In this document: positions 1 to 61,846 of the stretch, piece after piece | Layout: every line of letters begins with the position of its first letter | Numbering within the stretch: position 1 is the first letter of the stretch | Origin: Psammoneis japonica | Taxonomy: Eukaryota | Reading direction: 5' to 3' | NCBI GenBank assembly: GCA_008632985.1 | Contig: QPGO01000014.1 | Span: forward strand, 758,289 to 822,288 | DNA: 64,000 nucleotides | Program-made: the position numbers and the translations under genes | The notes under the pieces: generated by a model | Databases searched by the model: none | What the model was told of the DNA's origin: nothing | The model's input: the letters and a program-made list of their open reading frames with translations, nothing else

Positions 1-3000
1 TGTCTTGGCCTGCAGTTTGGAAAACATTTTTGATTGCAGCCTGCTGGTGTGTGGGCGATGCCATCAACAAGAGCTACCACTCTGCAGTGAAAGATGGAAG
101 CAAGCAGAAAAGTGTTGCAAGAAGTGTCATGGCAATGATTGGGTGGGATGACAGCATCTGGACCTTGCTGACCTGGATGAAGCAGCCACAGCAGGAGAGA
201 TCCCACACTTTTGTGATGGAGTGTCCAATGCCGGACAAAGCTTGAGCACAGAGGAGAGCAGTCCATTCAAGCTCCAGAAAGCAGACAACATTGCACATGT
301 GTTCATTCATCAACATGCCTCAAGCTGCAAGTCACAAAAACCACTGCCAATCTTTCTGCCAGCCACAGATCAAACAGCAAGTGTGCTGCTTTTTAGGGCC
401 CAAGATTCAAAACAGGGGTGGCTCATCAACTCTCTTCTTGTTTCATCCATTCAAGAGCTTCTTGTTCTCTCCAAGTCTTTGGTGTGCATTCATGTCTCTG
501 TTGATTCAAGTGCAAAGAGCAGTCATTTCTTGTTTTGCTTTCTCTCTGCTGGTTGCTGGTTGTTGAGTGGTGCATTTTTTGTTGTCACAATTTGGAAATT
601 GGCAAGCCCAATCACTGCTTGAATGTCAACCCATTTTCCACATTTTAAGTCTCCAAAGTGCAAAATGCAACAAGCCCACAGCCCTCAATTGTTTCATGCA
701 ATGCAATGCAATTCTTTGAAAGGTGCCCAACATCAACTCAATTCAGTTGAAATCCCAGTTTGTCAATGACTCAAAATCACAAACATCAAACAAATGGCTG
801 CTTTTGACATCAAGCTCCCCAACTTCATTCCAGATGTGACTGTGCACCTCAAAGTTCATGGCCATGATGCATGCAAGCATGCTTTGTTGTCATTGTCAAG
901 CACTTGTGCATGAAAGAAAGCCAGTGCATCAAAGTTCAGCAAAAGGATGGAACACAAATTCATTTGTGTGTTCATTTCCTGCATTGGTGTGGTGATGTCA
1001 GGGGCAGAATCGATCGCAACTGTGCACTCACCATGATTGACATTTCTGCATTTTTGCCATTTTGAAATCCCGCCATCAGCCATTTAACACCCATTGTCAG
1101 CCATTTGGCAGTCTTTGTGCTGAAGCAGAATTTTCATTAAGGATCATTGTTGACCATTTGGCTTGCGCTGGCTCAAGGTCATTTAATGAGATGGGTCATG
1201 GGCTCATCGTCAACCAGCCAGAAGCATGAAATCTTTGCCAATTTTTCCTGAATTTTGCTGTGCTTCGCCGTGGTGAAACAACAAACCACAAGTCTGTGAT
1301 GGAGGAGGCATGTGTGCCAACTCTCATTTGTTTTGTGTTTGTCAAAGATTGCACGTGTGTGAAAAGTTGGCAGACAGCAAGCTGCATTTTTGAGAAATGT
1401 TGATCACTGTCATCATCACCCCATGCTTTGATTGCCATGCTGGTGGTTCTCATTTTTGTGTGTGACAGGGTGTGACTGTGAAAAGCTCTTGTCTTCAAAA
1501 ATGAGCAAAAAGCACCAGTGTTGCTTGGAAAGAACTGCCATTGTCAAAGCTGGGTCATTGTTTTCCGCTGTTTTTTTAAACAGCTTGTGATTTTCCCATT
1601 TCCCCATGCTTTGCCCGTGCTGTTTTGTGATGCCTCTGAGCACCCCGAAACACTTGTGAGTGTGTCCAGCCCACATCAGGGCTGTCAGACCTTTGTGTGA
1701 ACTAAACTTGTCAACCTTCAAATGCATGTTGTTGGCTTGGCAAGGTTGTCACATTTGACAAAGTGCCATTTTTTTTAAAGTCAGACTGCTTGTGGCAAAC
1801 AAGCCACAACTTTCCAGGAAATGCCCATCAGAGGCCCGTTTCAAGAATGAGCTGTCTTGTCATCAGACCAGTGGACAGTCTCGCAGATGACATGTGTGAG
1901 TGTTGTCACACAAATTTGTTTGTGATGAATCATCGTCATTCAACATGAATCACACCTGTTCACCACAAATGGGTGTGATTAAAAACTGACAAATGTCCAT
2001 GCCAACAACAAATGTCCCCGGGGATGTCAACAAACAGTCGTTGATCCCAATGAGTGAGTTGCAACCCAACAAGTTTATGACTCCAAACAAGTTGCCTGAT
2101 GGGATTTCACTTTGCTTGTCGTTGCCAACCAGGTGATGACCGAATGCAGCATTGGGGCACATTTTCAATTTTTGTTGTCAAAGTCAATCAGTTGACTTGT
2201 GTGTTGCAACAATCATTTTCGATTGTCCCATCCACTTGTTGCATGTCACTGCTGCAGTTGATTGTCAACAATTGTGAATGCAAGCAATCACTGCTGAGCC
2301 AATCTCAACCAAACCGCCACCAACTCCAGCTTGCATGTTTCAGTGCAGTTGACCTGGAGGTTGTCTTCATCATCCAAGCCATCCTGTGGTTCTTCTGCCA
2401 CCTGTTGATGTTGCTCAGTTGCAATGGCTCAGCAGAGCTGTTCCCAAGGGCCAAGTTGTCTGCTTGCAACATCTTGCTTGATCTTCACGACCATTTCAAC
2501 AAAGAACTTGTCAGCCTTTGGCAACCACCTTTGCTGTTCCTTGGTGTCTTGCGCTTCCCAAGTCCCCCATTTCCATCTGCATCTTTTGGCTTCACCACCG
2601 TGAAATGCTTGAGTGTCCTGCCAACCTTTCTCTTCTTGCTGGATGCACGTGCATTGTTTTGGATGTCAACAAGTGCTTTCGCAGCCTTGGTCAGAGCTGT
2701 GACTCATGCTGCAGTCTTTGGCTTGTCTCTAATCTTCTTGACCATTGCATCCCATTTTGCAAAGGACTCTTCCCTTGTGTTCTCAAACTTCTGTTTTAGT
2801 TCTTGCATTGACAAACCTTCCTCCTCCAGCGGCTCTTGTGGATCTTTCCAGAGCAGCACAAACATGCTCATGCCCTGGTCATCCTTCTCCTTGGCTGTTG
2901 TGAGGTCTGGCTGGCATGATGGTCTTGCACAAGTCGTTGCTTCCCTCTTGGACCGTCGGGCCTCCATCATCAACCAACTTCACATCGTAATCTGACATCA

Positions 3001-3413
3001 AAGTCCCGTCCTTGTTTTGGCTCTTGCAGTCAGCATGCCACGCATCGCAGTTGTTCTTGAGGAGCATGTGGGCAAATGCCTCAGTGCACACTGTGCTCAT
3101 CCTCTTGTTCTTGGCAGTGCACTCTTTCCAGCATGTGTCTCCAAAAATTGGACGCAGCATGCAGTCACAGAACACTGTCTGCAAAGCTGGGTTTCCCATG
3201 CAATCTTGGAATCTTTCCACAGATGGCAAGATGCAATTGTTGTCATTGCAGCATGCACAAAGAGCTTCATTCGCAGCAGGGAAAGCAAGTGACAATGCTG
3301 TCAGCAACTGCAATGGCTGTTTTTGTTGCACCATTTGTTTGCACATTTGACCTCTTAATTGCCAGCCACTCCTGGCACATCTTTTTTTGTTTCATTGCAA
3401 GCCACAGGTGGCA

Positions 3414-3676
3414 CAGGCATGTTTTTTGCTCTGGCATGGGCAAATCCTGCAGCATTCTGTCCATTGTTTTGGGGCTGCAATTCTGTTCATGATTCCTTCA
3501 GAGCATGCCTGTTTCCTCCATTTCCTTGTCATTGAGTGTGAACGTGCAGGCATGTTTTTTGCTCTGGCATGGGCAAATCCTGCAGCATCCTGCCTGTCAT
3601 TTTGGGGCTTCAATTCTGTTCATGATTCCTTCAGAGCATGTCTGTTCCCTCCATTTCCTTGTCATTGAATGCAAAC
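3414..3676. repeat. ~133-bp tandem duplication
   Basis: caggcatgttttttgctctggcatgggcaaatcctgcagcat... starts at 3414 and again at 3547. Several differences between the copies are CA<->TG swaps. Confidence 0.9.
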
Positions 3677-4534
3677 TTGACACTGAGGAACAATGTTTCC
3701 TTGACATGTTCTCTCACCTTCGCAATGTCCTGCATCACCTTGGCATCATGATCTGCCATCCAATTGGTTGAGCTTGTGTCCCGCTTCACAATGACCATTG
3801 TCCTCCACTGCTGCCTCAGTTTTTTTTTCTGGTGTGTGCTGAAGTGCACTGAAGTGATGTGATGGATGCAGTTGAGTCTTGTGGATGATGTGCACACAAC
3901 AGTTGTCTTTCGTCCTTCCACATGCTTTTTTTCTCACCTGGGTGGGGTCTTTTTTCCCCACACATTTTTTTTTTGCTGGACATCTGCACTCCAATTTAAA
4001 TGGATCCTCCCTCCAATTCAAAACATTTCATCTTCAATGTCTGAACATGTGTTTGCCATGATGTCCAATGTCTCTTTACAGCCAACTCTCCAACAGCCAT
4101 TGCCGCCATGCCAATTGACTCCCACTCAAAAATCCACCAAGTCTTCACTCAACAATTTGATTCAAAAATCAATCCAACACCTGCATGCCAACAAATGGTT
4201 GTGATCAAGCATCAAATCATTTCATCCTGCTTCTGCCACCTTCCTTTCCCAATTGGACTGTTAGCTTGGCATGCTTTTTTGCCACTGTTGACACCAATGC
4301 CAGCAAAATGCACCCTGCTCTGGTGCATCTGCCACAACTCAATTGAGCCAGCTGGTGCAAGCCGCTGTTTTTGTTTTCCAAGAACAGCAACTTGCTCATC
4401 AGTTGTCCGTTTCTGCCTCTGAGAAAGACCAAGCCACAAATCCCAGCACTGGTTTCAACACAGACTGCGACCCACCCAGTTTCCCACCTGCGGAAGATCC
4501 ACAGCTTTTTCCTGCACCTGATGAGGAAGCAGAA

Positions 4535-4563
4535 GAGGAGGAGGAGGAGGAGGAGGAGGAGGA
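4535..4563. repeat. (GAG)n microsatellite
   Basis: Direct run of gaggaggag... Confidence 0.9.
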
Positions 4564-7204
4564 CCAGTTTCAGATTCAGTGTCACCCTTGTTGAATGAAT
4601 CAGAGCAAGAAGAGAGACATTGCTTTCACTTGGGCATGACTTTGAGCTGGGGCATGACCGCAATGGGGGGAGAGGCAAACTGCCATGGGCTGTTGCAGCA
4701 TGAACTGCCAATGTGGAATCCTGTGGATTCTGGTCATGCTGCTTTCTCAGTTCTGCGCTGATTCACCAAAAACATCTTCCATTCAAACAAATGCAAAATG
4801 CATGAGCTTTTTTGACCGTGACAGTTTTGTCCAATGACACTGCAAGCCCTTGGACAGATTTTTGACCTGCAGTTTGGACAACTGTGAAGAGATCCATGCC
4901 TCACACAAACACAGGCAACACATCTGAATGAACTGGGGCAACGGAGCACAAAACAGTGACGGACAGATGCACACACACTGGGGACGCATGTGGGCACCAT
5001 GGAATTGTGACTTTTGGTGACAATTTCCAGAATCTTCTGTCCCATTCAAAGTTTTGCATTGTGCATGGGTTTTGTCATCAGGGCTGCATGCAGTGCTTCA
5101 TGAGTGTCCAAGCTGAATGTCTGTGGATTGAAAAGTGTCAAGCTGAGTCATTCTTCTGAAGTTGCTGACAAAAAGGAATGCCAACATTTTGTGTTCAAAC
5201 AATGTGTCAGTTTTGTGCAAAGAAATGCGTGGTTAAACACAAAAACAATGATGAAACAAACAACTGACTTCAGTTTAATGGAGAAAATTCTGGGACAAAA
5301 ATTTTGTCCTGCGAGTGCAGAAAAAGTTAAAACTCCAACTGTTTGGGTCTTGCAGCTCTTCTCATGCCATGTTCATGAAGCCATTGGACACAGGTGTTCT
5401 TTCAACCCAATGCAGTTTGATGTCACCACAATTGTCTGAGTCACTTAAAACTTGAGCAACACAAAGACAAGATGCTTTGCTTGCTTGGATGAAGCCAATG
5501 CTGTCAATCTTCTGTTTCTTTGTGAACAAGTTCAGCACAGCGGGTTTGGCAGAATGTTTTTGGCTCAGATCATTGTTGCTGCTGGTCTTGGCAGAATCAT
5601 TTGTCATTTTCATTGTGCATTTTGAGTGTCAATGTAAAATGAGATGCAGCTGCAATTGCTGCAAAACGTGCACAAGCCTTGTCAAAGGTGTGCCACTCAG
5701 GTCTTGTCGCAGTTGTTTGTTGTGCTGCACAATTCCAAAAACATTGTCACATGTGTGGCCCATCTCAAAGCATCAGCACTGCTGGGCAAGCTGCACATTT
5801 ACAGAAGCAGATGATTCTTTGTTGTCAATGCAACAGGAATCACATCATCAATTGTTGGATTCTGAGCATGCTGAAGTCCTGCTTGTTTGTGAGAATCAAC
5901 ACTTTGGCCCTGCTTGTGTGCAACAGTGTGTGCAAGTTTGAAACAGTGATGCCCTGGAAAAAGCAGCATCAAAGAAAATTGATTGGTTGCCATCTGGTGC
6001 AAGGACAGGACGTGCAAGAAAAAACATCGGCAAACAGCATTGGCAAAAAAGTGGGAGATGCAAGTCGTGGAAAGGAAGCAAGACTGAGAGAAAAGGACTT
6101 AAAAGCAGGATTTAAAAACAAGAGTGACAGTTGTCTCACCACACAAGATGACAGTGTCACAGCTTGGATTTGTTGTTTGTCACAAGTCATGAGAGAACAC
6201 CATGCCTGACTTTGCTGAATGCTTGCCTGACTTGGTTCCACCTCTTGAGAGGGGAGAAGAGTGCAATCTGCAATCTGACATGTGCTGCTGGCACCATGAC
6301 ATCTGAGTGCATGTTTGAACAAGATGGAAAGGCTCTCTTGTCAACATTGCCAGGCGTTGAGCATGCAACACAAGGACAAGGCAGCAAACATGTTTTGCAC
6401 TGGAGTGCTCAATGCTCAACAAATGGAGCCACTTGTCAAAGACAAAGTCAATCTGCTCCACATGATTGTGTGTTCTTCTTTGGCAATTTGCATGATTCAA
6501 AGGGTCAATGCTTTGCAATTGTTTGCACTTTGCCCCAAGACAGCAATCAGCTGTTTTGCCATGCAAACAACAAAGCAGCAGGAGAAAGTTTTCTCATTGT
6601 GGAGCCTGTCTTCACAAACTGTCTCTTGCCAGGAGCTCCAATGTTGGAGACATGCCATCCACTCCTGCCTCTCAAAAATCCAAAGTCTCTGTTGTGCAAG
6701 ATGCCATTTCATCATGCACGTCAGGGTGAGATGTGTTTCTTTGCTTTGGGGCACAAAACTGTTGATTTTGTGTCAGCTTCATCAGCTCAACATGACAAAT
6801 CCTGTGGTGTGTGGAATGCTTGCCTTTGTTGCATGTGCTGGACTGTCTGGCACTGGTGCTGTGTGCGAGACTGGTTGAAATGGACACTGTTGTGTGCAAG
6901 TTTTTTTTGTCCATTTTGCAGGATTTAGTTCTTCAACCAGCCAGCACAACGGCACCCATGGCACCGTCACACTGGAATTGTTTGGGGTTGCCCCACTTGT
7001 GTGATGACTTGTCACCTCAAATCTGTTGAAAGCACATTGGCTGAAGTTGCTTGCACACTCACCTGCAATGCCTTGTCACATGTAAAATGACCAAGCAGGA
7101 CAGACATTTCTGGTCATGCAATGTCCGTTGTCGATCTGTTGTGAAGTTGCTTGTTGCCCTTGACGTTTTGAATCTGTTCAGGCACATGCACACAAGACAA
7201 AAAA

Positions 7205-7895
7205 ACTCAACGGACGTTGAAAATCTGTTGAAAGTTGGAAGTTGCAACAAAAAACTGTTGAAGCTTGGAAGTTTCAACAAAAAAACTGTTGAAACTTTTT
7301 TCAAGTTGTTGAAACTTCAAAGTTTCAACAGTTTTGTTGTTGAAAGTTTGAGTTGCAACAAAAATGCTTTCAACAAAAACTCACACAAACTGCTGAAACT
7401 TTTGGGCTCTGCATCACATGATGTCATGCACTGGCCACACGTCAAAAAGCAGCAGCAAGCCAAGTTCAAGTTGACACTGCACGACAATGCAAACTGCCTC
7501 AAAGCAATGGCGGTGATCCTCCTGTGGTGAAATGTCCCTGAGAGACAAGCAAAGTTCTTGATGTGGGCATTAAAAGCCTCTTGATGAGAACAAGCCCGGC
7601 TCTCAGCTTCTGCTGTGTGTCCCAACATGCCAAGCTTTGGCGGTCCTCGGTGCCAAGTGTGACAGTGTCTTTGGCATTTCCCATCAATTTGTCTGAGTTG
7701 ATGGTGACATCATGAAGTTTCAGACATTGTGGGGATGAAATCGTGGTGACATCATGTGGTTTCAACAACGACTGTTGAAACTCAAAGTTTCAACAAAAAA
7801 TCTGGTGAAACTTTTTCCAAGTTGTTGAAACTTCAAAGTTTCAACATGTTGTTTGTTGAAACTTCAGAGTTTCAACAGGTTTTTGTTGAAACTGT
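7205..7895. repeat. Array of GTTGAA/TTCAAC motifs in two clusters (probable subterminal repeats of a DNA transposon)
   Basis: Many gttgaaa/tttcaac copies in both orientations. caagttgttgaaacttcaaagtttcaaca occurs at ~7302 and ~7818. Confidence 0.65.
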
Positions 7896-9521
7896 TGCCA
7901 ATTTTTTGGCAAAAATGACTCTTTTTAATCAACAATGTCGATTGTGTGTGCTTGCACACAAACAGAATCACTGTGTGTCATTTGTGCATGAATGTTGAGA
8001 ATCAGCCCAATTGACATCTGTGCACATTCAAGCATGAACATGACACATGTTGTCAAAAATGTGATTGTGCACTTGCCAGTGTGGCATTCATTGTTCGAGT
8101 TTCAACAGATTTGAGGTGACTCCCTGGGGGCTGATTTTGTGAAAATGGGAAGGAAGCATGGGAGTTGTGCGTGGAGACACCCGCCGGGTTCCTTTGGGCA
8201 TGCAGAGAAAGACCCAAGTGAGTGACAGACCATTTTCAAAAACAGTTTTTGATTGCCATGCATCTGGGTTTTATCAAACATCTGCCACATGGAGCCAATT
8301 GAGACCAGGCAAAGAGAGATCCAACCATGAGTCTCCATCTCAACAAACCTCTGTGGGACAAAGGGCAGACTCAAATGGCATCATGATTGCATCAAAAATT
8401 TCCCGGAAAATTCCAGGTCTTGCACACAAAGAGTTGCAATGGACCATGACGCGATGCTGACGGGTCATGACTCGCCCACTCATGAATGGTGCAACTGAAA
8501 CTCACAATGAAGTGTGCAAGAGTGCGTCTTGCACGTGATGGGGTCATCAAAATTGCAACAACTGAAGAGAAATGGTCACAAAATGGACTTCTGGTGAGTT
8601 GCTCTGTTTGCCAGTGTCGTTGTTGAATCGCAGTTGATGTCGAGCTGTTTCTCGCAATGCTTGTCACATTTTTTCCTTGCAAAGGAGTCCATTTTAGACA
8701 GCTTTTGAATTTTGTTTGGCATGGCAGCCATCAAAAATGTCGCGCTTCAGAGTTTTGAAGGAGCAAGGGTCAAGACAACAAAGCACTGGTGCTTTGCCTC
8801 GATCGACAGAAACGGCCTTGCCGTTGTCTCTGTCCCAGCACAACCAAAGACTGCTCATCCTTCACCACTTGGAAATTGTTGCACAAAACCATGGCATCAA
8901 AAATTGTGGACGAAGGCTTCAGGGCCATCATGGAAAGGGACGCAAACCGCAGAGACTTGGAGTGCCATGAATGAACTTTCCTTTCTGGGACCCCAACACT
9001 CCTGCAACGTTGGCCCAGAGAGTGTTTTGCGAAAGGAATCATGGGCAGCCAGGTGCAGGAGATTTGCAGAGCACCCGACCCTTGGCACTGTCATGAGTGG
9101 GGGATCCACAATTCCGAGTCGCACCACTTTGGCTGCTTGCCCTCACGGACCGGCAAGTCACGACTTTGAGCTCGACAAGTGTGCCAATCCAACAGTTGGG
9201 ACTTTTGTGGTCGTGTGCCGGAATGTTTACTCTTATAAACGAACACAATCACCACATGATAATTAGCTTTCCTAATGTGATATTTCAGGCGACTCCTTGT
9301 TCTTTGTTGTTCTGCGAACACTTCCAACTTGCACATACAAACGTGAGACGAACGAGACTTTGGTATCTTTCTACAGGAAACCGAACTCCTGACATTCATT
9401 TTCACGATTGTGCCCATAGCTGGGTAAGAACCCTACGATTTCCTCTCGTACCATCATAAAGTTCCAAAGTTGTGTTCTCATAAAAAAAGTTTCAAGTCGT
9501 CAATCACGTTCATATTTGACC

Positions 9522-10565
9522 ATGAGAGGAAAATTCTTAGCCTTAATCGCCCTTGGTTACCTTGGCGTAAATGGAAAGCTCCACAAAGGAGAAAATGCCC
9601 GTAAGGAGAGGAGCTTGATCGAAGACGGGGACGTCGTGAGAGTTGTAAGTTTCGTTATCTGATTACACAACACAATCTTGGCGATCAAATGTCTCATTAT
9701 AAAAATTGATTGCTTTGCTTTTGTTTCCACTGTAGCTGAGTGGAAGCGGAAACCCTGCCGTTTGTCCTGACAACTGCGATTGCCCCGACAACTGCGACTG
9801 TCCCGATAACTGCGACTGTCCTGATAACTGCGATTGCCCCGACAACTGCGATTGCCCCGACAACTGCAATTGTCCCAATAACTGCAACTGTCCCGACAAC
9901 TGCAACTGCCCCGACAATTGTCCCGACAACTGCAACTGTCCTCAGCCCCCGGATTGTAACTGCGAGGTAAGCAAAGGAATCTGCTTTGCGGCTTTACGTG
10001 TGTTAGCTAGCTAGGAGTTGTACTTCTTTGATTACGGTTCATTGCTCACCCTGCCGCTGCTTGATTGGTTTGTGGCTGCCAAATATAGCAAAAAACGAGA
10101 TGCGTGGAACCGAATGCTCTTAGTGAGACTCTCTGTGCCCAAACTTTCTCAGAAGAAGGTGATAGCGATGGTGGTTTCGGTTTCTTGCCTGAACCAAAGC
10201 TGTTTCCACCATTTTCTACTCACGACTTTGTCATGAGGAGCCAGTTGGCAGTGGTGGGTCCAGGATTGCACAGCCAGGCGGTGTGCCAAGGTGGCTTACT
10301 GCTTCTTGATGATACGGCCGCATTTGTGGGCTCCCTAGACTTCTCTGGTGTGCTTTCTGGCCCTGAAAGGCTTAGCCATCTCACAATCACAGGCGGAAGT
10401 GGAGTATTTCGATCAGCAACCGGAGCCTTTACGATTTGGAGCCTTGGCGCGAATTGTAATGTTGATGCAACGGGTTACTCAGGGCTCGTATCATACCTCA
10501 TCTCGGTTGTAGATCTCTGCCTCTTGGAAGAAAACTACGACATCCTCTTTCCTGCTGCTCCTTAA
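9522..10565 (+). CDS. Secreted protein with Cys-rich (CPDNCD/N)n repeat and C-terminal dirigent/allene-oxide-cyclase-like domain; 3 exons (9522-9644, 9736-9966, 10089-10565)
   Basis: Signal peptide MRGKFLALIALGYLGVNG. Two phase-0 GTAAG...TAG introns join the exons in frame with ORF 10104-10565. Motif LTITGGSGVFRSATG resembles the dirigent GG(T/S)G.F..A.G motif. TA content is normal. Confidence 0.75.
9763..9940 (+). repeat. 18-bp coding tandem repeat (~9.5 units) encoding CPDNC(D/N)
   Basis: tgyccyrayaactgcray units, with variation mostly at third codon positions in the Cys-Pro-Asp-Asn-Cys frame. Confidence 0.95.
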
Positions 10566-13500
10566 AAGGCGCATAAGGTTAATGACTAGAGTTTCGTTAC
10601 AGTAGGGTATTTCATTCATGGTGGAGCTGAGGGATGGCCAGGTGTCAGCGCCAAAGACATTGAGGATATCCCCTCTTTTTATGAAGCTACATGTACACTC
10701 TGAAAGATTTGAATCTGCTGTTTTAGTCACGTTCAAGTCGGGCCCGATTTGCAGATTTTCAAGTGGGTGCGCAGCAGGACGAAATGCATGCGGAGAAGAA
10801 CGTGTTAAAGACTAATGCGAGGTCGCATTTCACGTCGGGACGGTGGATCACGCTGTCGCTTGGGTGGATCTGGATCGAGGATTGAAATTTATTTGAGTAT
10901 GGGAAATGAACTTCAGTCACGGTCCACTGCATGAATGGCTGAAAGATGTTAAACTGCAAAGTTGACATTGTGTTACCCATGGGTCCCCTTTGGAGGAGAG
11001 GGGAACACTCACATGACCCACATTCGCTCCATGGGCCCGCCAGGAGCTAGCAGTAGAAGCATTGGCCACCAGCTGCTGCCAGTGGCTGACACTCTCAACT
11101 CTACAACACTCTCTTACAGCAGCAGTGGCAACAGAGAGGGACCCCCATTTGACATTGGCCTCATCATTTCTGAGACAATGGCAGTCCCTCCTGATGAGCC
11201 CATGGTGTGAACATTGGTTGTCTGAGTGTTCCCCAACTTTCAGCCATTTGCGCGGTGACAAAACATGAAAAAATGAGGGAAACAAAACTCTTTGCTCTCT
11301 TGTCCAATGCACTGTTGTGTCGAGAATTGCTGCACTTGCAGCAACTTGGTTCGAAATGGCTCTCATTTTCTTTCCCAAACCTGAAGCACTGTGCATTGTT
11401 TTGCTTGGCTCATTGCCTTGAGTCTTTTTCTTGTTGGCTCTGTTTCCCATGAAAAGATTTGGTTGGCATTTGATGCTCTTAGGGAGGAAAGCAAGGTGGC
11501 CATCAGTGAGGAGCTCCAACCAGACCTGGTTGTTGCAAAGAGCACAATGAATGGTGGTCACTTTGAGCTCACCCAGCGACATCTTTCATCATCATGCAAG
11601 GCATCTCTCATCAAGGAAATCAATCAGGAAGAGTTGGACCACTTCACGTTTGGCAAGTTGGCTGCCTTGGATGGAAAGTTGCACTTTCATGGAAAAGATG
11701 CAGTTCACTGGGAAGAACTTTGGGTCTGTGATCCTCATCTGTGACAAACCAACATTGAATGGTGACAGAGCAACAGAACCTCAGGTCACTGAGGGGCCAA
11801 GGAAACAGCACATGGAAACAATGTGTTGCATGTCTGACATGCTTTGTGATTGGGCAAAAGCTGCTCCTGGATGGGACAAGGTGCCATTTGCTGCAGACAA
11901 ATGGCAGAACGCTTGCTTTGCTTCCAAACTTTGCGACAAATTTGGTCTGAACCATGTCAACAAGAATGGCAAACAGGCGCAACTTTTTGAGCACTTTGCA
12001 GTGGCCATGACTTTGTTGAACTAGTTGGATCCCATCACCAAACTGCCTGCATTGCTGGGATGCCATGCAGACAACTTGAATTGCAGAAAGAAGAACTGCA
12101 ATGCTCTCATGTGCATCTGCTTTCATGTGTGCATTGTGCATTGATGGTGAGTCATTGCTTTGGGTGTGCCTTTCATTTTTGATTCATGCAATGTTCATGC
12201 TCTGACGTTGTCATTGAGTTGTTTCCTGCAAGGCAAATGGCACCAAATGTGTTCAATCAGAAATGGTTGTCGTTGCTGCTCTGAGTGCTTCACTCGTCTG
12301 GCTGGCAGTGACAAGACGCTTTGTCAGATGTTGGGCTTCTTCTGCTCCTTGTTTGAAGAGCATTGCCAAATTGATGCATGGCCATTTCCTGCTGCCATCA
12401 CATTCTGTTGGGGTTCACCATCCTTTTCCCAACATGAACAAAACAGTGTGGGAAGCAGCCTTTGCCTCTGCCACACTGCACATGCTGCAGTCTTTTCCAA
12501 CCTCCATGGAGCAAAAATTGTGAATTGCTTCTGCCAGTGGAATGGTTGACCACCCCTGTTCAGATGTGTGAAGTGCACAAAGGATGGGTGAAGAATGGTC
12601 TTCCCACCACTGGCAATCTCACTGAGGCACTCGTCAATGAATGCATGTGTCATTGTGGTGGGTTGTTGTGTGGTGACAGCAGCTGCAAACGTGGCAATTT
12701 GTTGTGCATCATTTGCTCTTCTCCAGTCCATTTGAGCAATCAAGCTTCTTGCGCACTGTGACAAGAAGAATGATGTTCCAAATGTCATTGGTGTGGCAGA
12801 CATTGGTGCACAGCATTTGGTTGCAGTCAGCAGTGTTGTCACCATGTGCAAGGATGTGACATTGGCAGAGCAAGCTTGGGTGTGTGCATCCACACATGTG
12901 CACAAGGTTGTCAATGAGACATTTGGTGTTTAAGCTCCTGTGGCAAACGAGTGTCACAAAACATTTGCTCAACTCACCGGCACAAATGCAGCAATGGCAG
13001 AGAATGTTCCTTGTGAAAAACTCAGAACTCTTGGGGAAAATGCAGACTGTGTGATGTCCAAGCTTGTCAACAGTGGCATGTCTCAATGGATTCAGAAGAA
13101 CAGTCACTGTCACATGCCTGACACTGGCTGTTTGCCATGATCAATCAATCTTTGCAATTGAAAATGGCACTGGGATGGAATCCTTTAAGAAGTGTCATTC
13201 AGATGAAGGAGAGGAGCATGATCTGGTTTGTCAGCCAGTGGAACTTCCCCAGTGCAAGATCAACAACAGACTTGACACAGATTGTCCCTGGGTGCTGGGA
13301 AAGTTTGTGTCCTTTAAACCAGTGGAAGTTGAGACTTCCAAAACATCCGTCCTCCCAGAAGATTGCAAGAAGAACAGGGCTGGAAAGAAGAAGAGTGCCA
13401 AATTCAATGAAAACAGCCACTCTTGCATGGGAAGAAACTGAGCATGGGAAGCAGCTCTTTGAGCAAAGGCAGACAGGAATTCCAAACTTGACTTCAAGAT

Positions 13501-52155: not shown

Positions 52156-53568
52156 TTAGACTTTGGCCCGCAAAGCAAACTCTTTCGCTCTTTGCTTGTA
52201 AATATACTTGCTAAGCACATCATGGCGATCAAACTGATGAACCACAGGTGACAGTGTCCCATCCCAGTTATGAACAGTCCAAGTGATTGCATTCGGCTTT
52301 GCAATAGCTTGCCGTTTCCCCACTCGTCCAGTTTCGCCGTTCTCATGGCACCCAAATTATTCATGGCGCCCAAGCCTTGACCAAACACCGTAATGCTTTG
52401 AATAGTTTTGGCATTTGCCAATTTGTTGGAATAATACAAGTAATTGTGGAACCCCTGATCGGCACCCATGAGTTTCACCAAGGTCTCGTCCGACTCGGCA
52501 ACCATGGCACGCAGATACGTTTCCAAGGCAATTTGCTCTCCCATGGAAGATCCTGAACAAATGGTGGGCTTGTTTTCCAAGACATGAATCACGTCTTCTC
52601 CATAGGCGTTTGTGATCCATTTGCGATTCTTGGGTGATTGGCCAATCCGAGTTGCTTCAGTGTTTTCCTGTAGTGTGCCGAGAGGAGCAGATGAATTAGA
52701 TTATGATTCTCCAAACGCTGAGATTACACAGTCATACTTACGCCGAAAAAATGAAGTAAGCCATCTGGTTCATCCTCGTTGCTTCGTGGGACATTTGCAA
52801 AAGGATCTGTCTGAAAATACGAGTCTCTCGCGTCAATCAGCATGAGCCAGCTGTGAGGCTTGTAGTGGAGGCTCCACATCCAATACAATTCATACCGAGT
52901 CGTTTGCAAGGTTCGCGGCGGTCGTGGGTCCTTGACTAGCGCCCCTTGATTGTCTTTGTACATGTCGTGTATTTGACAGAGTCGGATGCCACCCTTGGCA
53001 CTATCAACCGCCTCCATCTCAGCATTAAAGCACGACAGCGTTACAACATAAATCACCACATTAAAGCCGTCTTGGTTTTGTTGTTGCAACAGATAATTCT
53101 TGACGCTTCGCTTCTTTAAATCCTGTGATGCAATTGCCAATACACGTCTCCTGTAAAGCCCGTTTCCTTGAGAGTTTCCAAGAAGCACTGGTAAATGTGC
53201 AAGTCATATTCTGCAGCAAACGCAAACACGGCATCCACGTCGGGCCGGTGCTGACCATGCTCTGGTTGGAGACCCGCAAGTGCCGTGGGACCCACCATGG
53301 CGGAGGGCTTTGGAAATACTGAAGGTCCAACAACAGTGTGACTGGAAATAGTAAAGAGTTCCAACGAATGGTATGGATCAAAATTAGGTGACGCAGCCAA
53401 TCGACGACGACTCGATTTCTGAAGAACATTCGTGTTGGGAAGAAGGGCTCCTGTCGTTGCGTGCGATGAATAGAATGATAAACATCCACAACACCAACAA
53501 GAATGTCGTGTAAAGATGGCAAAGCTGACCGCCAACAAGAGAGGCGGTGGATGCGTCCAGGTGGCCAT
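52156..53568 (-). CDS. Putative glycosyltransferase-like type II membrane protein; one intron (~52668-52738) and apparent frameshifts
   Basis: TGFTGDV, RYELY, LIDARDSYFQTDPF, ICSGSSMG, DQGFHNYLYY and VVHQFDR motifs. Hydrophobic N-terminus. Confidence 0.7.
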
Positions 53569-54451
53569 TGTCGGGCTCGTTGAAAGTTGAAATGCAATCA
53601 GGCGAAAAAGAGAAAAAACAAAAGAAAAGAAAAAGCTGCAAAACGAACAAACAGCTGAAACAGAAAGAAAAAAGAGAAAAAGCTGGAAAAAGACGAAAGC
53701 CACACCTTAATCTGGCTCCTCATCAGCGGCACTGGGCAAAGACTCGGAGGATGGGGACAGGGTCTTCAAGTTCTTTCAGGACAGGATCAAAGCTGTGTTC
53801 TTTGTGGAATTCAGCCCGTGCACCAGTGTCCTTTCTTGGCAGTGCTGGCGCATGAGAACACGCAGCTCCTCCTCGCTTCTTGTTTGGCGCCTTCTTGCTG
53901 AGCAGAGTGGAGGTCACAGCAGAAAGCACCAGCCATGGCAGGGTTCACAAGTGCCAAGGCTGCATCTGTGGGTGTGTCAGGTCCAAAGCAAGACATGAAC
54001 TTGTGAGTGTTCAGGTTGCATGAGCACGAGGCATCATCTGACATGTGTGTGGTCAACACCAGGAGGGCCCGGCAGATGGCAGATGTGCCCCCCTTGAGTG
54101 CCAGCAGGCGTTGGTGGCGGCATTGGTGCAGGGCACTCATGTGCAGGATGGCAGCCAGTGGTGGTGTGCTCTCAGATGTCAAAACAGTGGGTGCCGGCAT
54201 TCTGGTGGAGCAAGGCACCAGCAAGCTCCATGTCGGAACATTGGTGGTTTGTCCCCACGGGTGTTTGCTGACCGGGTGATGAGGGTGCGGCAGATGGATG
54301 ATGCCAAGAGTGGGTGCAACCAGACTGCAGGTGCTGGGCTGCTCAGAATGGTGGTCACAACAGAGTGCAATGGAGCATTTGGAGTGAGTGGCAGCAAGTG
54401 CAGAACTTTGGTTGAGCCAGGCAGCTGCATTCTGCCAGTGCCAAGCCCTCC

Positions 54452-54885
54452 TGCCCTGTGCATGTGCTGGGTGCTGAAAAAGAAGATGTGTTACGACTTT
54501 GTCGTTGTGAAAATTATGAGCTAGTTTAGAGTAGAGAAAATGGGATCGTGCGAACAGGGAATCTTGCCAAATCCCTGTTCGTTCGCATTTGGATCGCATT
54601 AAATCGATCGTGCGTTCGCATTGTGGATCGTGCGAATCAAGCCATCACGCGCCATGCACGAGTGATGTCATCGTGTGGAATCACGCTACCATCGTGGGCC
54701 AGACGACGGGCCAGTGTGCTTCACATGGACGCTCTCTTAGCATCCTTCTGGAATTGCCTGAGACCTGGAGCCACGCCCTCCTGTGGTCGTGCTTCCCAGG
54801 TGCGTGTTAACAATGCTGCATTGCCACGTGCAAGAGGCTTGTGCACGGTCTCGCCGTGTTGTCTCCAGCAGCGAGGCACACTGCA
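54452..54885 (-). repeat. 3' LTR of Gypsy 2
   Basis: Direct repeat of 59321-59752. Confidence 0.95.
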
Positions 54886-54929
54886 CACTCCCCCATGATC
54901 AGGGCCGTCAAGTGACAGGATGTCTTGCT

Positions 54930-57900
54930 GGTGACAGGGTACAATCTGCCGTAGATTGCACGCATCTATCAGCGCTCCGTTCTGGACACGCAACGTGCCG
55001 TTGTCACATGCACAGACAACTCTGGCGGGTCCTGCACAGCTGTCAGAACCGCATTTAGAGGATTGTTCCTGTTTGATGAGTGCCAATTGCCCTACGGTGT
55101 GTTGATGCTCCTTGCGTTTCTGATTTTCACGCTTGTTGTTTAAGTGGACAAGCTTCTGCTTTCTGGTTTCTATGTGCTTCCACTTGGCACAATGGGCAAC
55201 AGATGAAACCGCATCGCGTCCGAAGACCAATTGCACGGGACTTGCACGCGTGGTCATGTGCACCGCAGCTCCAACAGCGAAGGCCACTGCGGAGAGGATG
55301 CCACTCCATGGGTCATCTTCGTCCAGTTCCACATCCTGCACTGAAAAGGAACGCACCATGTTGCCAAGTGTCTGGTGCACACATTCCACTGTGGCATTTG
55401 CCTGTGGATTCCGTTTGCTTGTGGGTTTCTTCAAAATCCCACAGTCATTTTTAATCATCTGGCTAAATTCTGCCATAAATTCTGTCCCACGGTCACAAAC
55501 CACCTGGGTTGGCCACGGACATCTGCACAGCCAAGTTTGTTCTACGACGTTTGCTGCGACGTCTGCACATTTCGCAGACACTTCTTTAATCTCGAACCAC
55601 CCGGTTGCTGGGTCAATCATTGTGACTGCCCACAATTGCAAGGTGTCCTTTCCACGTCTTTGAATTTTATGTGGCCCCATCATGTCCATGCATGGAGTCT
55701 CCCATGGAATTATCTCTGTGACCTTTTCTGGTGGCTTCCCATGATGCTGCGTTCGGCGTTTTGTCTTCTGGCATCGATCGCACTTAACGCACGTAGAATG
55801 CACCGTAGACCTCATGCCAGGCCAATGGAAGTGCTGGGCAACAGACATTTCCGCACGTGTCTCACCTGGATGACACAGTGTCTCGTGGTGCCATTCAGCC
55901 AGCGGAACCTGCAATGACTGTGGCACTGCGATTTTGTCCTTATGACAGATTAACTGTCGTGATGACCCTCCCCCACGACACGCGCGAATGGAGCAGTCGG
56001 ACGAGTCCTTGGCTCGTGAGAGCAGGCGCTTGTCCTTTTGTTGTGCTTTTTGAATGCGCTTGAAGCTAATGGGCAGAGACATCTCATCTTGCGCGTCTGC
56101 ATTAAAAGCTTCATGCAAAGGACGACTCGATGGAGTGTCTTTTACATCTGGATTGGCCTCGGAAGGCAAGCTGGGTGCTGGTCGAAGGCGACTAAGAGCG
56201 TCAGCGACTGGGTTGTGGGTGCCCTTAACATGGCGTAATTCGGGACCGCATTCTTCGCACATTGACCGCCAGCGCATAACGCGCTCGGCATTGAACACTT
56301 TGTGCGTAAGATTTTTATGATCAGCATGTGCAATTGTGCGATGACCAAGGAGAATTGTTCGAAATTCTTTCAACGTCTCCACAATGGCGAGCAATTCTCT
56401 CTCCGTTGTTGTGTGATTTAATTGCGCACTGTTGAGCTTTCTGCTGTAAAAGGCGACAGGTTTATTATCTTGGGATGTGACTGCTCCCAATTTACATTTA
56501 GAGGCATGGCATGTGTCTCAAAGGGTTCATTAAAATCAGGATGTGACAACAAAACATCATCCGATGTCACCCGTTTAACGGTTTCGAATGCCTCGTCTTC
56601 AACGGACGTCCACTCCCACTTAACAGTCTCGCTTGCGAGTCGTGTTAGCGGAGCCAAGACTTCAGAACGTCCAATCCACGTGTCTCGGCAGCAGTTCACC
56701 ACACCAACAAATGAAAGTGGGTCGCGTTCATTGGTTGGGGTCGCGATTCGCTTGATGGCGTCGACTTTATCAGGTGTTGGTCGCACTCCGTCTCTGTCAA
56801 CCAGATGACCCAAGCAATCTAATTGGGTTTGACAGAAGTGAGATTTAGTTGCGTTAACTTTTAGTCCTGCTTTCTGGACCCTCAACAAAACTTCTTCAAG
56901 TTTGTTGAGGTGATCTTCACAGGTGCCTTTCGTCACGACGAGAAGGTCATCTAAGTGCGTTCGAACAAACGACAGATCTTCAAATAAGCCTGACATGCGT
57001 TCTTGGAAAATGTCTGGCGAATTGCACAATCCCATGGGCAACACCTGCATCTCATGCTTGCCCCACGGGAAGATGAGCATGCAGAGCTTCTTGCTGTCAG
57101 TGTCCAATCGGATGTGACAATGGCCCATGTTTGAATCCAGTGATGTAGCCCACACAAAGCCTTCGAGCTTGAGCAGCACATCTTGGATGTGAGGAATCGG
57201 ACAAGGCAATCGCTTGATCCGTTTGTGCAGCTCTCTGAAATCATTGGTGAAGCGCACCGTTAAATCTTTCTTCGGCATGACAAATGATGGAGCTGCCCAT
57301 TGGGATCGGTTGACGCATTTGAGAACACCGATGCGCACCAGGCGTTCTACTTCTTTACGCAGCGTAGCTTCGCACGCATGAGGTGCTTTACACGGACGAG
57401 CGTGGCATGGTTCTACACCCTCCTTGAGTTGGATGTGGCAGGGTTCTCCCTTCCATTCTCCCAATGTCCCATCAAACAAGGACTCATGGCGTTTCAATGG
57501 TGCCAAAAGGTCGTTTTGTTGAACCACAGAAAGTCCTGTTGCCCCTCGCGTTGTGTCCTCGAGGCAGGCCGGCGCGCACTCAGCATCCAAAATGCGCGAA
57601 ATCCGGTCGGTTTCCGAAGATGAGGCTTCTGGATCTTGAAGATAGAAGGAGGTTTCTACCGCAGCATCTGCGTGCCTCATTGGTGCTTCTCCATTGACTG
57701 GTGGCCACTCTGTCATCCATTTAGAGAAGACAATGTCAATGCCTTGCGTCTCCAGAATGTCACGTCCAATGATCACATCGCACTTGCCCAACTTTCCGTT
57801 GTGTGCGTGGACGGCATGCTTGAGTTCTGCAGTTTCGGACAATTCTGGCAACCGAAATTTAACGGTGCAGTCGTCAGACGTGCCAAACGAGCCTGCTGCC

Positions 57901-58145
57901 GTGGTCCAGTTTGTCTCAGCCGTTGAATGGCTTCGCAGACATTTGCAGCATCGACTGTCAAGCAGGGTGCTGCCAGCGCCACTGTCTGGCAGTGCCTCAA
58001 TGGTTTGAGTCTTGCCCTTGCCATGTTTGGCATTCACAGCCACAAACAAGATTGGAGTGAGATGAGTCTTTTTAACTCGTTTGCGGGATTGGCCCACAAC
58101 ACGTGTACGATGGTAATTCAGTTGTTCATTTGTGCATTCATCCAA
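54930..58145 (-). pseudogene. pol: Gypsy 2 pol, frameshifted near 56500, with pervasive Tyr->Cys/His
   Basis: ALPDSGAG, DVIIGRD, DFRELHK, LPMGL, THLDDLL, AFYSRKL, DHKNL, LCHPG, IDPATGWFE, DRGTEF, NPQANA.VE. Confidence 0.95.
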
Positions 58146-58189
58146 TGTGTCAAAACTGCCTGCATCGTGTCGGCCCCCTTCTCAGGCAT

Positions 58190-59226
58190 CCGAATCTTCG
58201 GAATCACTTAAGTTGAGGTCGCGGAAGTGATCAAGCTCCTCCTCACGTGCCTTGCGCTTTTTCTGAGCGTTGGCAAAGAACTCCTCGACCTTCGATCCGA
58301 TGAGAGTGTCAATGTCTTCCTCATTCCGAGGTTTTGCATTGGGCTTGCCGCCTCCATCATTGGAATGTCCAGTCTTGACACATTTCACGTGGTGCTTGAG
58401 CTGACGGCAATCCTCCGTATGATGTCCACAGTTAGTCCCGTGCAGCACACACTGACTTCTGGGTGTTCCGTTGGGTCGTGATCAACGACTCAGGATTGTC
58501 CGTTCTACGTCCCCGCTCACGTGGAACCTTAGCATGTTGGTCCTGGTTACCTTCGGCAAGCTCGACCTGCTCGATGCGCTCGCAGAACTGTGCAAATTCG
58601 GCAACAGCATGTGCCAACGGGTCAAAATTCTGCAGCGTCATGAACTTCTGCCATGCGTTCGGCACACCGCACTCGAACACATCGCACAGTTCGTCATTGG
58701 GCAATGGTGCTGGTGTTTCTCCATCCTCCGTCACGGGTGGAAACTGAGAGACACAGCCGTTAATTTCAACAGCCCTCGCGACGCAGTCACGAGCAGAAAC
58801 CTCTGCGGGCTTGCGCATGAAGCGCCTCAGACAACGCTTCTGCAATGGCACCGCCCCATGTGGGAAGATGCTTTCCTTTAGCTTCGCGACGCATGCTGCG
58901 TACGTGGCGTTGGTTTGGGATGCCTGCTTGTCAGCGGCATTGTCAAATGACGTCAGAGCATCGCCCTGCAGTGGGTCACGCACAAGGGCAAATTTCGCTG
59001 GCCCGGTCGTGATGTTTTGTCCTTCGTGCACGCGATCCACGTTGCGCAGAAAGATTGGGAGTGTCTCGCATGTAGCCGCAGAAAGGTGCGGAATGCCCAT
59101 CTCGTGCGTTGGACCATCTGGATCAGCAGGGTTGTTACGTAGCTTGAACGTCTGGCACTCGCCCTGCTGCAGCTCTTTCTTCTCCGGCCGTGTGAACGGA
59201 ATCAGCGGCTCAATCCGCTTCTTCAT
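58190..59226 (-). pseudogene. gag: Gypsy 2 gag (frameshifted; C-terminal CxxHGxxxxHxxxxC knuckle)
   Basis: LQGDAL..F, LQKRCLRRFMRKP, VPNAWQ, FCERIE; C.LHGTNCGHHTEDCR in ORF 58182-58448. Confidence 0.85.
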
Positions 59227-59320
59227 GGTCGTTTTAAGATTTGTCGGTCCTGCCAACATTTCGTAGTTTCGTTTCTGTAGATTTCGTTACCTCGCACAAC
59301 ATGCGGGAGCAATGTTGCTG

Positions 59321-59752
59321 TGCCCTGTGCATGTGCTGGGCGCTGAAAAAGAAGATGTGTTACGACTTTGTCGTTGTGAAAATTGTGAGCTAGTTTAGAG
59401 TGGAGAAAATGGGATCGTGCGAATGGGGAATCTTGCCAAATCCCCATTCGTTCGCATTTGGATCGCATTAAATCGATCGTGCGTTCGCATTGTGGATCGT
59501 GCGAATCAAGCCATCACGCGCCATGCACGAGTGATGTCATCATGTGGAATCACGCTGCCATCGTGGGCCAGACGACGGGCTAGTGTGCTTCACACAGACG
59601 CTCTCTTAGCATCCTTCTGGAATTGCCTGAGACCTAGAGCCACGCCCTCCTGTGGTCGTGCTTCCCAGGTGCGTGTTAACAACACTGCGTGGCCACGCAC
59701 AAGAGGCTCATGCACGGTCTCGCCATGTTGTCCAGCAGTGAGGCATGCTGCA
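59321..59752 (-). repeat. 5' LTR of Gypsy 2
   Basis: Direct repeat of 54452-54885. Confidence 0.95.
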
Positions 59753-61846
59753 CTCCTTGTGTGTCATGCTGTGAGCTGACCAGCACTGGCTCCATGCACC
59801 ATGTCGGCCATTTCACCATAGAGGAAGGTGAGGTGCCAATGTGTGCAGACTTGTGCCCCTTCCTGAACCATGGCAGCATCTCTGTGCAGGCTGGGCTGAC
59901 AGACTTGCTGTTGGGCTGGATGTCACTCCAGGTGGGCTGTCTGTGAAGCTGCCACAGCCCTGATGATGGTGGAACAGCACAGCCAAGTTGACAGTTTTGA
60001 GGAGGTCAACACCACTTTCTGCACACTCACTCAGTTTGTCTGTGATGGCCTGTGCCACCTGGGGCACTGGTGGGTGACACTTTTTGGCAGTCAGGGTCCC
60101 AGAGGACATGTGGGCAGGGCATGCTGGAAGGCAAGTTGATGTCAGGGCAGGTTGCACATGGCAGCCACCCCCATGCTTGCACCCTGCCATGCCTTGCAAC
60201 TGGTCTCACACCAACTGCAGAGCAAAGCATCCTCCTCCTCAGTGTGAGGTGCACTGTCTGTTGCCAAACCACAATTTCCATCACACATGCATTTTTGGTG
60301 CAGCTGGGTGTCAGCAACACTTGGTGCTGCTGAGTTCTGACTGATCTTGTCAGACTGGGCATTGAGGGCTCATTGGGTGGCTGTGACTTCTTCAGTGGGG
60401 GCTGATGCCCTCAGACAGGTCATCTGGAATTGAGGAACTGAGGAGATGCACTTCAGCAATCTTCTTTGAGAGAGCCAACAACATCTCAGTGCAAAGTGGG
60501 CATGGCCCAACTGCTCACAGGTGTCCTGCATGTGAGCTTGGACAGTGATCTGCTGTGTGCCTCCCTTCTCAGCACATGCTGTTGCTCTGTCACTGTGTGC
60601 ACTGGTGGCAGGTCCTGCTCTTGTGTGCCACCTGACAGTGGTGCATGAGTTTTTGCACAATCACACCAAAGCATTTGCTGGGAGTGCCGCTCTGCTCATG
60701 ATCTTGCCACTGTTGATCCTCCTGTTGTGTTGCATGTGTGTCAGAAACCAGGGTGTTGACCCCAGCTGTAATCTGCTGAGCTCCCATGGCAAGTGGCATC
60801 ATTTTGTGAGGTCTGGCAAGTTCCCAAAGACTGGGGTGTGTGGTGTGTGCACGCACATGTGCACCAAAGATTTGCACATCTTGGAGGGTGACAATGGGTG
60901 GCAAGATGGGTGCCTGGGCTGCCAATTGTGAAGGCTGATTTGCAGCCTGGCATGTGCGAGTGCACGCTGAAGCCAAAAAGTGAAGGGGGTTGGGTTCCTC
61001 CACCAGCAGAGCTTGTGGCACCAGCTTGTCAGTGTTGCAAGCATTGCTGGCCATTGGGGTTGGCTCCTGTGGTGTGTGTGCTGTGTGCTGCATTTCCCTG
61101 AAGAGGCACCCCACAAGCCACGCAAGTGTTGGCGCGCTGCCGTTCTGAAAGGGGCCCGTGGCAGCAAATGCAAAGAGCTGGTGACATTGCACCACCTGAG
61201 CACCCAGCACCTCCAGTCCAAATGCCAGCTGTGACAGCAATGGCACAGCGGCCAGGGGCACCCATTGCTGTGCTGGCAGTTGTTGTTGTCTCGCTGGCTG
61301 CTGCTGCTGCTGTGGCAGTTGCTGCTGTTGTTGTGGCTGCTGCTGTGGCTGTCCAGCTGCAGTCTCAGTGACAGGAGGCAGCACCACTTCTCTCCTTGAT
61401 CTGCCATGGCAAATTGAAGATGAGAGGAGAGAGGGGTGCACCTGTGGTGAGCCATGTCATTGTCCTGTTCAACTGTCTGCTTGTTGTTGTTGCACCAACA
61501 ACAAAGAATGACCTTGTCGGCCAGCAGGGAAGCCAAGTGTTGGACGTCTGTCTTCGATGGGCACTTTCAAGCCAATCAACAGCCCTTTCGTGATCTTCCC
61601 TGTTCTGCAGTCCAGCGCCAGTGCGCACGCACGCAAGCAGTACAGTACACACGCGACGCACGAGGCCTCGTCGAATCGACATTTTACGTGTATATCTATG
61701 ACTACCGTAATGACGCAATGACTGACGCGAACTGAAAACATAAGCCCTTTGGTGCCCTTGAATGCCGTGTGCTATCAAACAGAAAAAGTTGGAAGCTGCG
61801 AGTGGAGTCAGTTTTTTGTGTCATTCCAATCGAAAATACCGCAACG

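Follow-up and report, generated by a model that had tools for sequence, protein, structure and literature searches.

We analysed a stretch of 64,000 nucleotides from the genome of Psammoneis japonica (contig QPGO01000014.1, positions 758,289 to 822,288), hereafter referred to as the window. It contains two Ty3/Gypsy elements recognized by Pfam matches on the minus strand (G1 and G2), several host genes, and six blocks – totalling 28.9 kb, with edges refined from the positions of individual TA dinucleotides – from which TA has been almost completely removed (Table 1). These blocks probably record a regionally targeted hypermutation that acts after integration and converts TpA to TpG or CpA, superimposed on the decay of CpG.

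Table 1. Features of the window. Paired numbers are observed/expected TA counts; O/E, observed/expected ratio; LTR, long terminal repeat; ORF, open reading frame.
Feature	Coordinates	Strand	Properties
Block A	1-9227		TA 32/684 (O/E 0.05), CG 0.24, TG 1.79, CA 1.87; sharp right edge at 9228
Block A arrays	7239-7360, 7759-7893		Periods 30-31 bp
TA-normal island between blocks A and B	9228-11115		TA O/E 0.59, CG 0.76
Tandem repeat in island	9763-9917		18-bp unit, 8.3 copies
Block B	11116-21294		TA 56/705 (O/E 0.08), CG 0.30
Block B ORF	16108-16911	-	RNase H-like features
G1	21466-28079	-	Pfam RVT_1, RT_RNaseH, Integrase_H2C2
G1 LTRs	21466-22052, 27494-28079		589 bp
G1 open pol ORF	22079-24595	-
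Weak SET-domain ORF	28919-30514	+	Pfam E 4.5e-4, under cut-off; normal TA; abuts block C; within X2 contig 29095-30614
Block C	30647-34144		TA 10/229 (O/E 0.04), CG 0.18
Block C direct repeat	30656-30913, 32338-32584		About 250 bp
SNF2/bromodomain/RING/helicase gene	34375-39283	+	Pfam; three GT..AG introns; normal TA in exons and introns
SNF2 gene introns	35447-35547, 36506-36586, 36851-36933	+	One spliced X2 contig
ABC1/aarF kinase gene	39687-41465	-	Pfam; normal TA
Further X2 contig joints	41895-41999, 42151-42266
Block D	43575-46634	+	TA 4/166 (O/E 0.02), CG 0.26; carries the longest TA-free gap
Decayed Gypsy integrase in block D	44247-45084		tblastn with G2 integrase, E 4e-23
FkbM-type methyltransferase ORF	46753-47763	+	Pfam; normal TA; abuts block D
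Block E, left flank of G2	53386-54451		TA O/E 0.07, CG 0.46
G2	54452-59753	-	Pfam Gypsy; nested inside block E
G2 LTRs	54452-54886, 59321-59753		435 bp
Block E, right flank of G2	59754-61640		TA 2/93 (O/E 0.02), CG 0.14
PT-repeat open frame	61736-64000		Continues past window end

Across the whole window TA is underrepresented relative to the expectation from base composition (O/E 0.31), CG is low (0.62), and TG and CA are in excess (1.49 and 1.52, respectively). The deficit of TA is not spread evenly but is clustered in blocks, whose borders are sharp and can be resolved to tens of bases. Pooled, the six blocks contain 108 TA where 1,935 are expected (O/E 0.06) and 435 CG where 1,682 are expected (0.26), with TG and CA both at 1.82. 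Host segments (23.0 kb) have 884 of 1,601 expected TA (0.55) and 1,158 of 1,279 expected CG (0.91), with TG and CA each at 1.22, and five introns – four of them defined by joints with GT..AG flanks in contigs of a sequencing run, X2, described below – contain 33 TA against 39.9 expected. The sparing of genes and introns and the sharp confinement both hold within the 64-kb window, and they agree with an earlier sequence-only reading of this DNA, which had reported that blocks derived from transposable elements (TEs) lose TA and gain TG and CA, while the genes and introns between them keep ordinary TA.

The depletion of TA in the blocks is genuine and much too strong for chance. TA-free gaps of at least 200 bp number 52, the longest spanning 2,013 bp, and at the TA density of host DNA the probability of a gap of this minimum length is 4.6e-4. 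When 1-kb windows are scored for a TA O/E of 0.15 or less together with TG/CA of at least 1.5, 96 of 253 qualify here, and none of 2,168 from 78 environmental loci (610 kb) with relatives of the SNF2 gene; these loci are gene-rich and serve as a control for chance only, not as evidence that their organisms lack the process. Taking the host O/E values as the starting state, the blocks have lost about 961 TA and 1,088 CG (2,049 together) and gained 2,174 TG plus CA, a gain that matches the loss. Decay of CpG accounts for about half of it. The sequence-only reading had argued that neither fungal repeat-induced point mutation (RIP) nor CpG deamination explains the pattern; the direction is indeed opposite to that of RIP and CpG decay alone is insufficient, but CpG loss does supply about half of the TG/CA excess, and the co-depletion of CpG in the same blocks was absent from that account.

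The block sequence is complex rather than satellite-like, with sparse and short tandem repeats, and the order of TG and CA within blocks is random (runs test, z from -1.8 to +2.4). Because TG and CA alternate at random, each site seems to have been struck independently on either strand.

The LTRs of a single element are identical when it inserts, so differences between them arose later, in DNA. The two LTRs of G1 are 98.5% identical and lie within a 4-bp target duplication (CGTT). They differ at nine positions, all of them transitions, and at all nine the right LTR has TA where the left has CA (five) or TG (four); 9 of 33 TA sites have thus changed, compared with 0 of 33 CG sites. The mutated left copy adjoins block B and its unmutated twin adjoins the SET gene. 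Both LTRs are equally repeated and yet are split 9:0, an asymmetry suggesting that the trigger lies in the region and not in homology; the sequence-only description of the process as repeat-restricted goes beyond the evidence. G1 as a whole has a TA O/E of 0.58 and a CG O/E of 0.95, with a gradient in TA from about 0.25-0.4 in the half adjoining block B to 0.8-1.16 in the half adjoining the SET gene.

G2 is more advanced, with a TA O/E of 0.30 and a CG O/E of 0.90 over the whole element. Its LTRs are 94.2% identical, are bounded by the target-site duplication CTCC, and have 25 differences: seven CA/TG doublets, five single differences of TA against TG or CA, five of CG against TG or CA, and one transversion. 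All but one (24 of 25) are thus of the pyrimidine-purine (YpR) type; counted as single-base changes, 19 are TA-type or belong to doublets, five are CpG-type and one is neither. A CA/TG doublet is one ancestral palindromic step that was struck on opposite strands in the two copies, and as the two LTRs still have 27 CpGs in common, nearly all doublets must derive from TA. They also mark older pairs, with 11 in the direct repeat of block C and 27 between G2 and the Gypsy remnant in block D. We estimate from the LTR counts that there were about 25 ancestral TA sites, of which about 66% have been lost per LTR, compared with about 8% of CpG. Loss of TA is therefore roughly tenfold faster than decay of CpG; there is one background change in the 433 aligned positions.

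Conserved protein positions provide a second view of the direction. We aligned the G1 and G2 products with 25 public Gypsy pol proteins drawn from 150 matches, in which 11 columns have Tyr in at least 70% of sequences. At these columns G2 has His at seven, Cys at three, Met at one, and Tyr at none, while retaining 159 of 186 other conserved columns; G1 has Tyr at two, Phe at five, His at three, and Cys at one. Conversion of TAY codons to CAY (His) or TGY (Cys) is the exact outcome of the proposed change, so the loss of Tyr fits a change from TA to TG or CA. The G2 ORFs remain open, yet Tyr makes up only 0.2-0.7% of their residues, and the reverse transcriptase (RT) motif reads HLDD in place of the customary YxDD. 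The direction is from TA to TG or CA, as the sequence-only reading had it, together with CG to TG or CA, and the changes occurred in integrated DNA.

A search for metagenome relatives of the G2 integrase found none. A public Logan contig (4,734 bp) encodes P0249, a Gypsy RNase H-integrase with 0 Tyr in 606 residues, 4.1% Cys and 5.3% His; at 33% identity to G2, it represents a second element family with the same Tyr-erasing footprint, which may belong to this organism or to another.

G1, G2 and the stripped blocks form a series in which TA is lost first and CpG later. The flanking bases modulate the process, ATAT being lost earliest and TTAA latest: the TA that remains in the blocks favours TTAA (O/E 0.26), ATAT is absent, and in the G1 LTRs ATAN makes up five of the nine lost sites and TTAN none, with TTAN at 10 of the 24 sites that were kept.

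The origin of the blocks is clearest for block D, where the decayed integrase was found. A hidden Markov model (HMM) of 25 outside Gypsy homologues matches the same region (44491-44826, E 9e-4) and, searched over all depleted blocks, finds no other remnant. Where G2 has CG, the block D remnant reads CA or TG at 17 of 24 sites. The minus-strand ORF of block B has language-model features resembling RNase H and zf-RVT retroelement proteins (Atlas feature match 0.92, RNase_H cluster), and its top feature clusters are diatom hypothetical proteins; it has no Pfam support, and a word-based homologue search, which covered longer proteins only, gave no match. We regard it as a lead to a TE origin of block B. 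The two copies of the block C direct repeat, 82% identical and 1.7 kb apart, may once have been the LTRs of a small element, now decayed. No ORF of block A has a Pfam match. We infer that the blocks consist of old mobile or foreign DNA that is silent, within a diatom-like nuclear genome. The sequence-only statement that every TE-derived block is stripped holds for block D, the one strongly depleted block with an established TE origin, but not for G1 and G2, which are only partly depleted.

Two side observations concern block A and its neighbour. The two short block A arrays match each other in both orientations and each is partly palindromic; they may mark the ends of an element now decayed. 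The 1.9-kb island between blocks A and B, with its tandem repeat, has no Pfam match and may be a small host gene shielded from the process.

Among 213 ORFs of at least 75 aa that overlap the depleted blocks (72 within a first Pfam scan of 111 ORFs and 141 in a second), there is no credible family. Two matches at E of about 0.005 fall under the cut-offs, and 21 block ORFs rescanned against Pfam at E <= 5 gave noise only. The first scan omitted 16 of 127 ORFs of at least 120 aa, which are antisense or overlapping frames inside host genes, G1 or G2. Long ORFs were considered as a sign of coding origin and rejected as such: the blocks have 14 ORFs of at least 200 aa, compared with 5.8 on average when second-order Markov sequences are simulated, and the longest is 333 aa, where the simulated maximum has a mean of 276 and a highest value of 431. 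With TAA and TAG eliminated and TGA the sole remaining stop, frames of 200-330 aa are common in the blocks by chance.

There is a close precedent in Bigelowiella natans. In mutation-accumulation lines of this alga, two integrated regions, one from a giant virus and one from a virophage, took 231 of the 302 new nuclear mutations; all but one of the 231 are A to G or T to C, every such one is on TpA, and the rate is about 1000-fold over that of the rest of the genome, in some lines only (Mettrop et al., bioRxiv 10.64898/2026.01.13.699255). The B. natans genome has 124 clusters that are poor in TpA and rich in CpA and TpG, where RT and DDE domains and ORFs lacking annotation are overrepresented; an ADAT2-like adenine deaminase is the authors' untested proposal for the enzyme (10.64898/2026.01.13.699255). 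The sequence-only reading knew of no description of such a system, and this preprint, with its TpA-only hypermutation to TpG and CpA, overturns that claim (10.64898/2026.01.13.699255). In a full-text search, in which subscription journals lay largely outside the coverage, TpA loss in transposons is described only in the B. natans preprint and not in diatoms. One paper that combines 'diatom' and 'hypermutation' (PMC9258296) was set aside as a precedent because it concerns immunoglobulins.

The two systems share several features. In both, TpA is struck and TpG and CpA are produced (9 of 9 G1 LTR differences and 19 of 25 in G2), leaving a footprint of TpA depletion with CpA and TpG enrichment. 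In both, the changes keep to discrete regions, which in B. natans are foreign or mobile DNA and here probably are so too, with G1, G2 and block D identified as mobile and block B a lead. The B. natans rate exceeds background by some three orders of magnitude, and the G2 LTRs give an indirect estimate of similar size here. They also differ. B. natans is a rhizarian, whereas the host here is, by gene homology, a diatom-like stramenopile; the blocks are near saturation (TA O/E 0.02-0.08), in contrast to a Rho TpA of 0.45 in the B. natans region derived from a nucleocytoplasmic large DNA virus (NCLDV); and the targets include LTR retrotransposons, whose LTR pairs prove that the action follows integration. 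CpG is co-depleted here, whereas the main text of the preprint makes no mention of CpG (0 occurrences), and de novo events were seen in B. natans, whereas the present case is known from its sequence footprint.

We propose that two processes have shaped the blocks. The fast one changes the A:T pair of a TpA step to G:C on either strand, giving TpG or CpA, and acts after integration and inside sharply bounded regions. The slow one would be ordinary decay of CpG to TpG and CpA, of the kind that cytosine methylation produces in silenced elements, and would proceed about tenfold more slowly per site. Together they would bring silent DNA of mobile or foreign origin close to complete loss of TA and CG. 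In view of the LTR asymmetry and the sharp edges we favour, with some reserve, a fast process that is enzymatic and is targeted by a silent-chromatin state spreading from neighbouring blocks; the chromatin guidance that the sequence-only reading put forward is likewise something we infer. As to chemistry, we rank adenine deamination first and mispairing of oxidised thymine second. Our tentative candidate is an adenine deaminase of the ADAT2/TadA type that prefers a 5′ T and acts on DNA, with the resulting inosine being read as G. As the sequence-only reading had stated, the window does not encode a causal enzyme, judging from a Pfam scan of its ORFs.

A number of points weigh against this proposal. 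A single-strand-processive deaminase might leave strand-coordinated tracts of TG or CA, and the runs test finds none in the blocks. The gag of G1 is Tyr-rich (4.8%), so that native composition could partly explain the TA gradient across the element. The excess of TA loss over background substitution, about 900-fold and thus of the order of a thousandfold, comes from one element and one background event. The sequencing run X1, which reproduces part of block C, may be the sample behind the assembly and so does not provide independent support. Deamination of A and oxidation of T alter the same base pair, so sequence context cannot separate them. Finally, a TE origin has been established only in part, being demonstrated for block D, a lead for block B, and presumed for the remainder.

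The second-ranked chemistry, in which a dioxygenase of the TET/JBP type oxidises the T of TpA to 5-hydroxymethyluracil (5hmU) or 5-formyluracil (5fU) in silenced DNA and mispairing with G then yields T to C, we consider unlikely, although it is the main alternative. It gives the same base-pair outcome as the changes between LTRs, and thymine and 5-methylcytosine (5mC) are both 5-methylpyrimidines, with both palindromic YpR steps depleted in the blocks. The mispairing with G is a property of 5fU. However, 5hmU pairs normally with A, so that a further oxidation step is needed. Moreover, the loss rates of TA and CG are about tenfold apart, which is not suggestive of one enzyme, and the B. natans authors prefer an ADAT2-like deaminase, although this is likewise unproven. 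A dinoflagellate system lends some plausibility: there, a TET/JBP homologue is reported to mark transposable elements with 5hmU, and the mark is linked to their silencing (PMC11572971). It would resemble the present process in being thymine-directed, if the oxidation reading holds, and differs in being a modification and not a fixed mutation.

A broader idea, which we offer as speculation and think rather improbable, is that a single chromatin-targeted system erases both TpA and CpG from silenced DNA, through one enzyme class (a deaminase for which both A and C are substrates, or a dioxygenase that takes both T and 5mC). The TA- and CG-free state would then be the designed end point of a defence by mutation instead of a coincidence of two unrelated decays, and the system would be ancient in the SAR supergroup (stramenopiles and rhizarians) or have evolved twice.

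It is very improbable that no targeting is involved, i.e. that a genome-wide bias changes TA and CG to TG or CA, with TA in genes preserved by selection and the blocks being no more than old neutral DNA at equilibrium. The host DNA does show the same tendency (TA O/E 0.55, TG and CA 1.22), and 13 differences of TA against TG or CA are among the 40 of 313 X1 differences that are listed, several of them in host regions. Nevertheless, introns keep their TA (33 against 39.9 expected), the edges of the blocks are sharp to tens of bases, the G1 LTRs are of the same age and yet split 9:0, the G2 LTR differences are YpR-type at 24 of 25, and none of the 2,168 1-kb windows of the related environmental loci reaches such depletion.

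A sequencing or base-calling artefact, with a modified base at TpA being misread and the true sequence being TA, is highly unlikely. The only DNA run (X1) has no recorded library type and is possibly the assembly's own data, but its exact-word contigs (31-letter words, depth about 60-66) reproduce block C: contig 28994-33748, which takes in the first 3.1 kb of the block (30647-33748), has one differing letter and one gap in 4,756 bp, ruling out consensus errors from noisy reads. If a palindromic TA were modified on both strands, reads of one strand would show CA and those of the other TG, and no clean consensus per site would result. The partly mutated elements also retain some TA sites and not others, and the LTR doublets are fixed differently in the two copies.

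Editing of retroelement transcripts from A to I by an ADAR-like enzyme, before reverse transcription, has hardly more to recommend it. A change of A to G with a preference for 5′ U is the ADAR pattern, as is noted in the Discussion of the B. natans preprint (10.64898/2026.01.13.699255). However, both LTRs are copied from one template, and yet they have 9 (G1) and 25 (G2) differences, nearly all at TA, and the strands are equally affected (TG 1.82, CA 1.82). ADAR also accepts a 5′ A and AA is not depleted; ADARs are not known outside animals. Error-prone repair synthesis focused on heterochromatin, by an enzyme of the DNA polymerase eta (Pol eta) type with WA to WG errors, does yield A to G at TA, as the sequence-only reading proposed for synthesis of this type, but it can practically be dismissed, since the WA motif includes AA, the frequencies of AA/TT (1.27/1.17 in blocks, 1.16/1.16 in host DNA) and AG/CT (0.97/0.98 and 0.95/0.96) are unchanged, and 9 of 9 G1 LTR events are at TA.

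Targeted hypermutation of TpA in integrated DNA may also be set beside other known systems. Mutational genome defence has long been regarded as essentially fungal (RIP), or as acting before integration in animals (APOBEC). RIP changes C to T at CpA, making TpA; it is triggered by duplication and strikes both copies. Like RIP, the process seen here is a defence by mutation at the DNA level, with transitions in a dinucleotide context in mobile DNA and a compositional scar; unlike RIP, it runs in the opposite direction – as seen in LTR pairs, Tyr columns and composition – and all nine changes between the G1 LTRs are in one copy, despite their 98.5% identity. The CG O/E of 0.14-0.46 across the blocks, with a matching gain of TpG and CpA, resembles the CpG decay that follows 5mC deamination, but such decay cannot remove TA and is slower here (0 of 33 CG sites changed compared with 9 of 33 TA sites in the G1 LTRs). 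APOBEC and ADAR, which edit retroelements and viruses in animals, are deaminases whose hypermutation serves in defence and which favour a particular neighbouring base, but they act on replication intermediates or RNA before integration and are strand-biased, whereas the changes here are post-integration, strand-symmetric, and without coordinated tracts.

The window provides a second lineage for a process of the B. natans type, with a near-saturated end state; this is less novel than the sequence-only reading held, but it is still striking. A saturated footprint in a diatom-like genome suggests that a TpA-directed, GC-increasing defence is widespread among marine protists. New here are the proof from LTR pairs of action on integrated DNA, the time series from a young element to an older one to a stripped block, with TA loss outrunning CpG decay, and the preferences for flanking bases, which constrain any candidate enzyme. 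Genetic manipulation is possible in some diatoms; should tractable species show the signature, knockouts could reveal the enzyme, which would amount to a natural DNA editor of A:T to G:C. There are also practical consequences for annotation. Stripped blocks defeat homology-based annotation of TEs, as the 213 ORFs without a credible Pfam family illustrate, and they mimic long ORFs, having TGA stops only, which is a trap for gene callers. They also bias the dating of elements by LTR divergence.

Among the host genes, the ABC1 and SNF2 genes have named relatives that are all diatoms (41-54% identity), with a best unnamed match of 69% and no near-identical public match. The genes for a leucine-rich repeat (LRR) protein and a PT-repeat protein have normal TA as well. 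Genes of chromatin type (the weak SET ORF and the SNF2/bromodomain/RING gene) and the FkbM methyltransferase ORF directly adjoin stripped blocks; nothing ties them to the process. Run X2 is labelled 'DNA?', and no run listed as carrying this sequence is recorded as RNA; X2 nevertheless acts like RNA, in that its contigs skip GT..AG introns. Its contigs have no cover at 31336-34003 and 44009-46676, and missing cover is not evidence of silence. When the X1 contigs are compared with the window over 28112-43033, the selected subset of 40 of 313 differences that is listed includes 6 of CpG type in addition to the 13 TA-type; several listed differences fall in host genes, where allelic variation or slight leakage of the process may account for them. 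The open frame at the right end of the window matches a PT disordered repeat (E 4e-26) and contains 108-bp tandem repeats.

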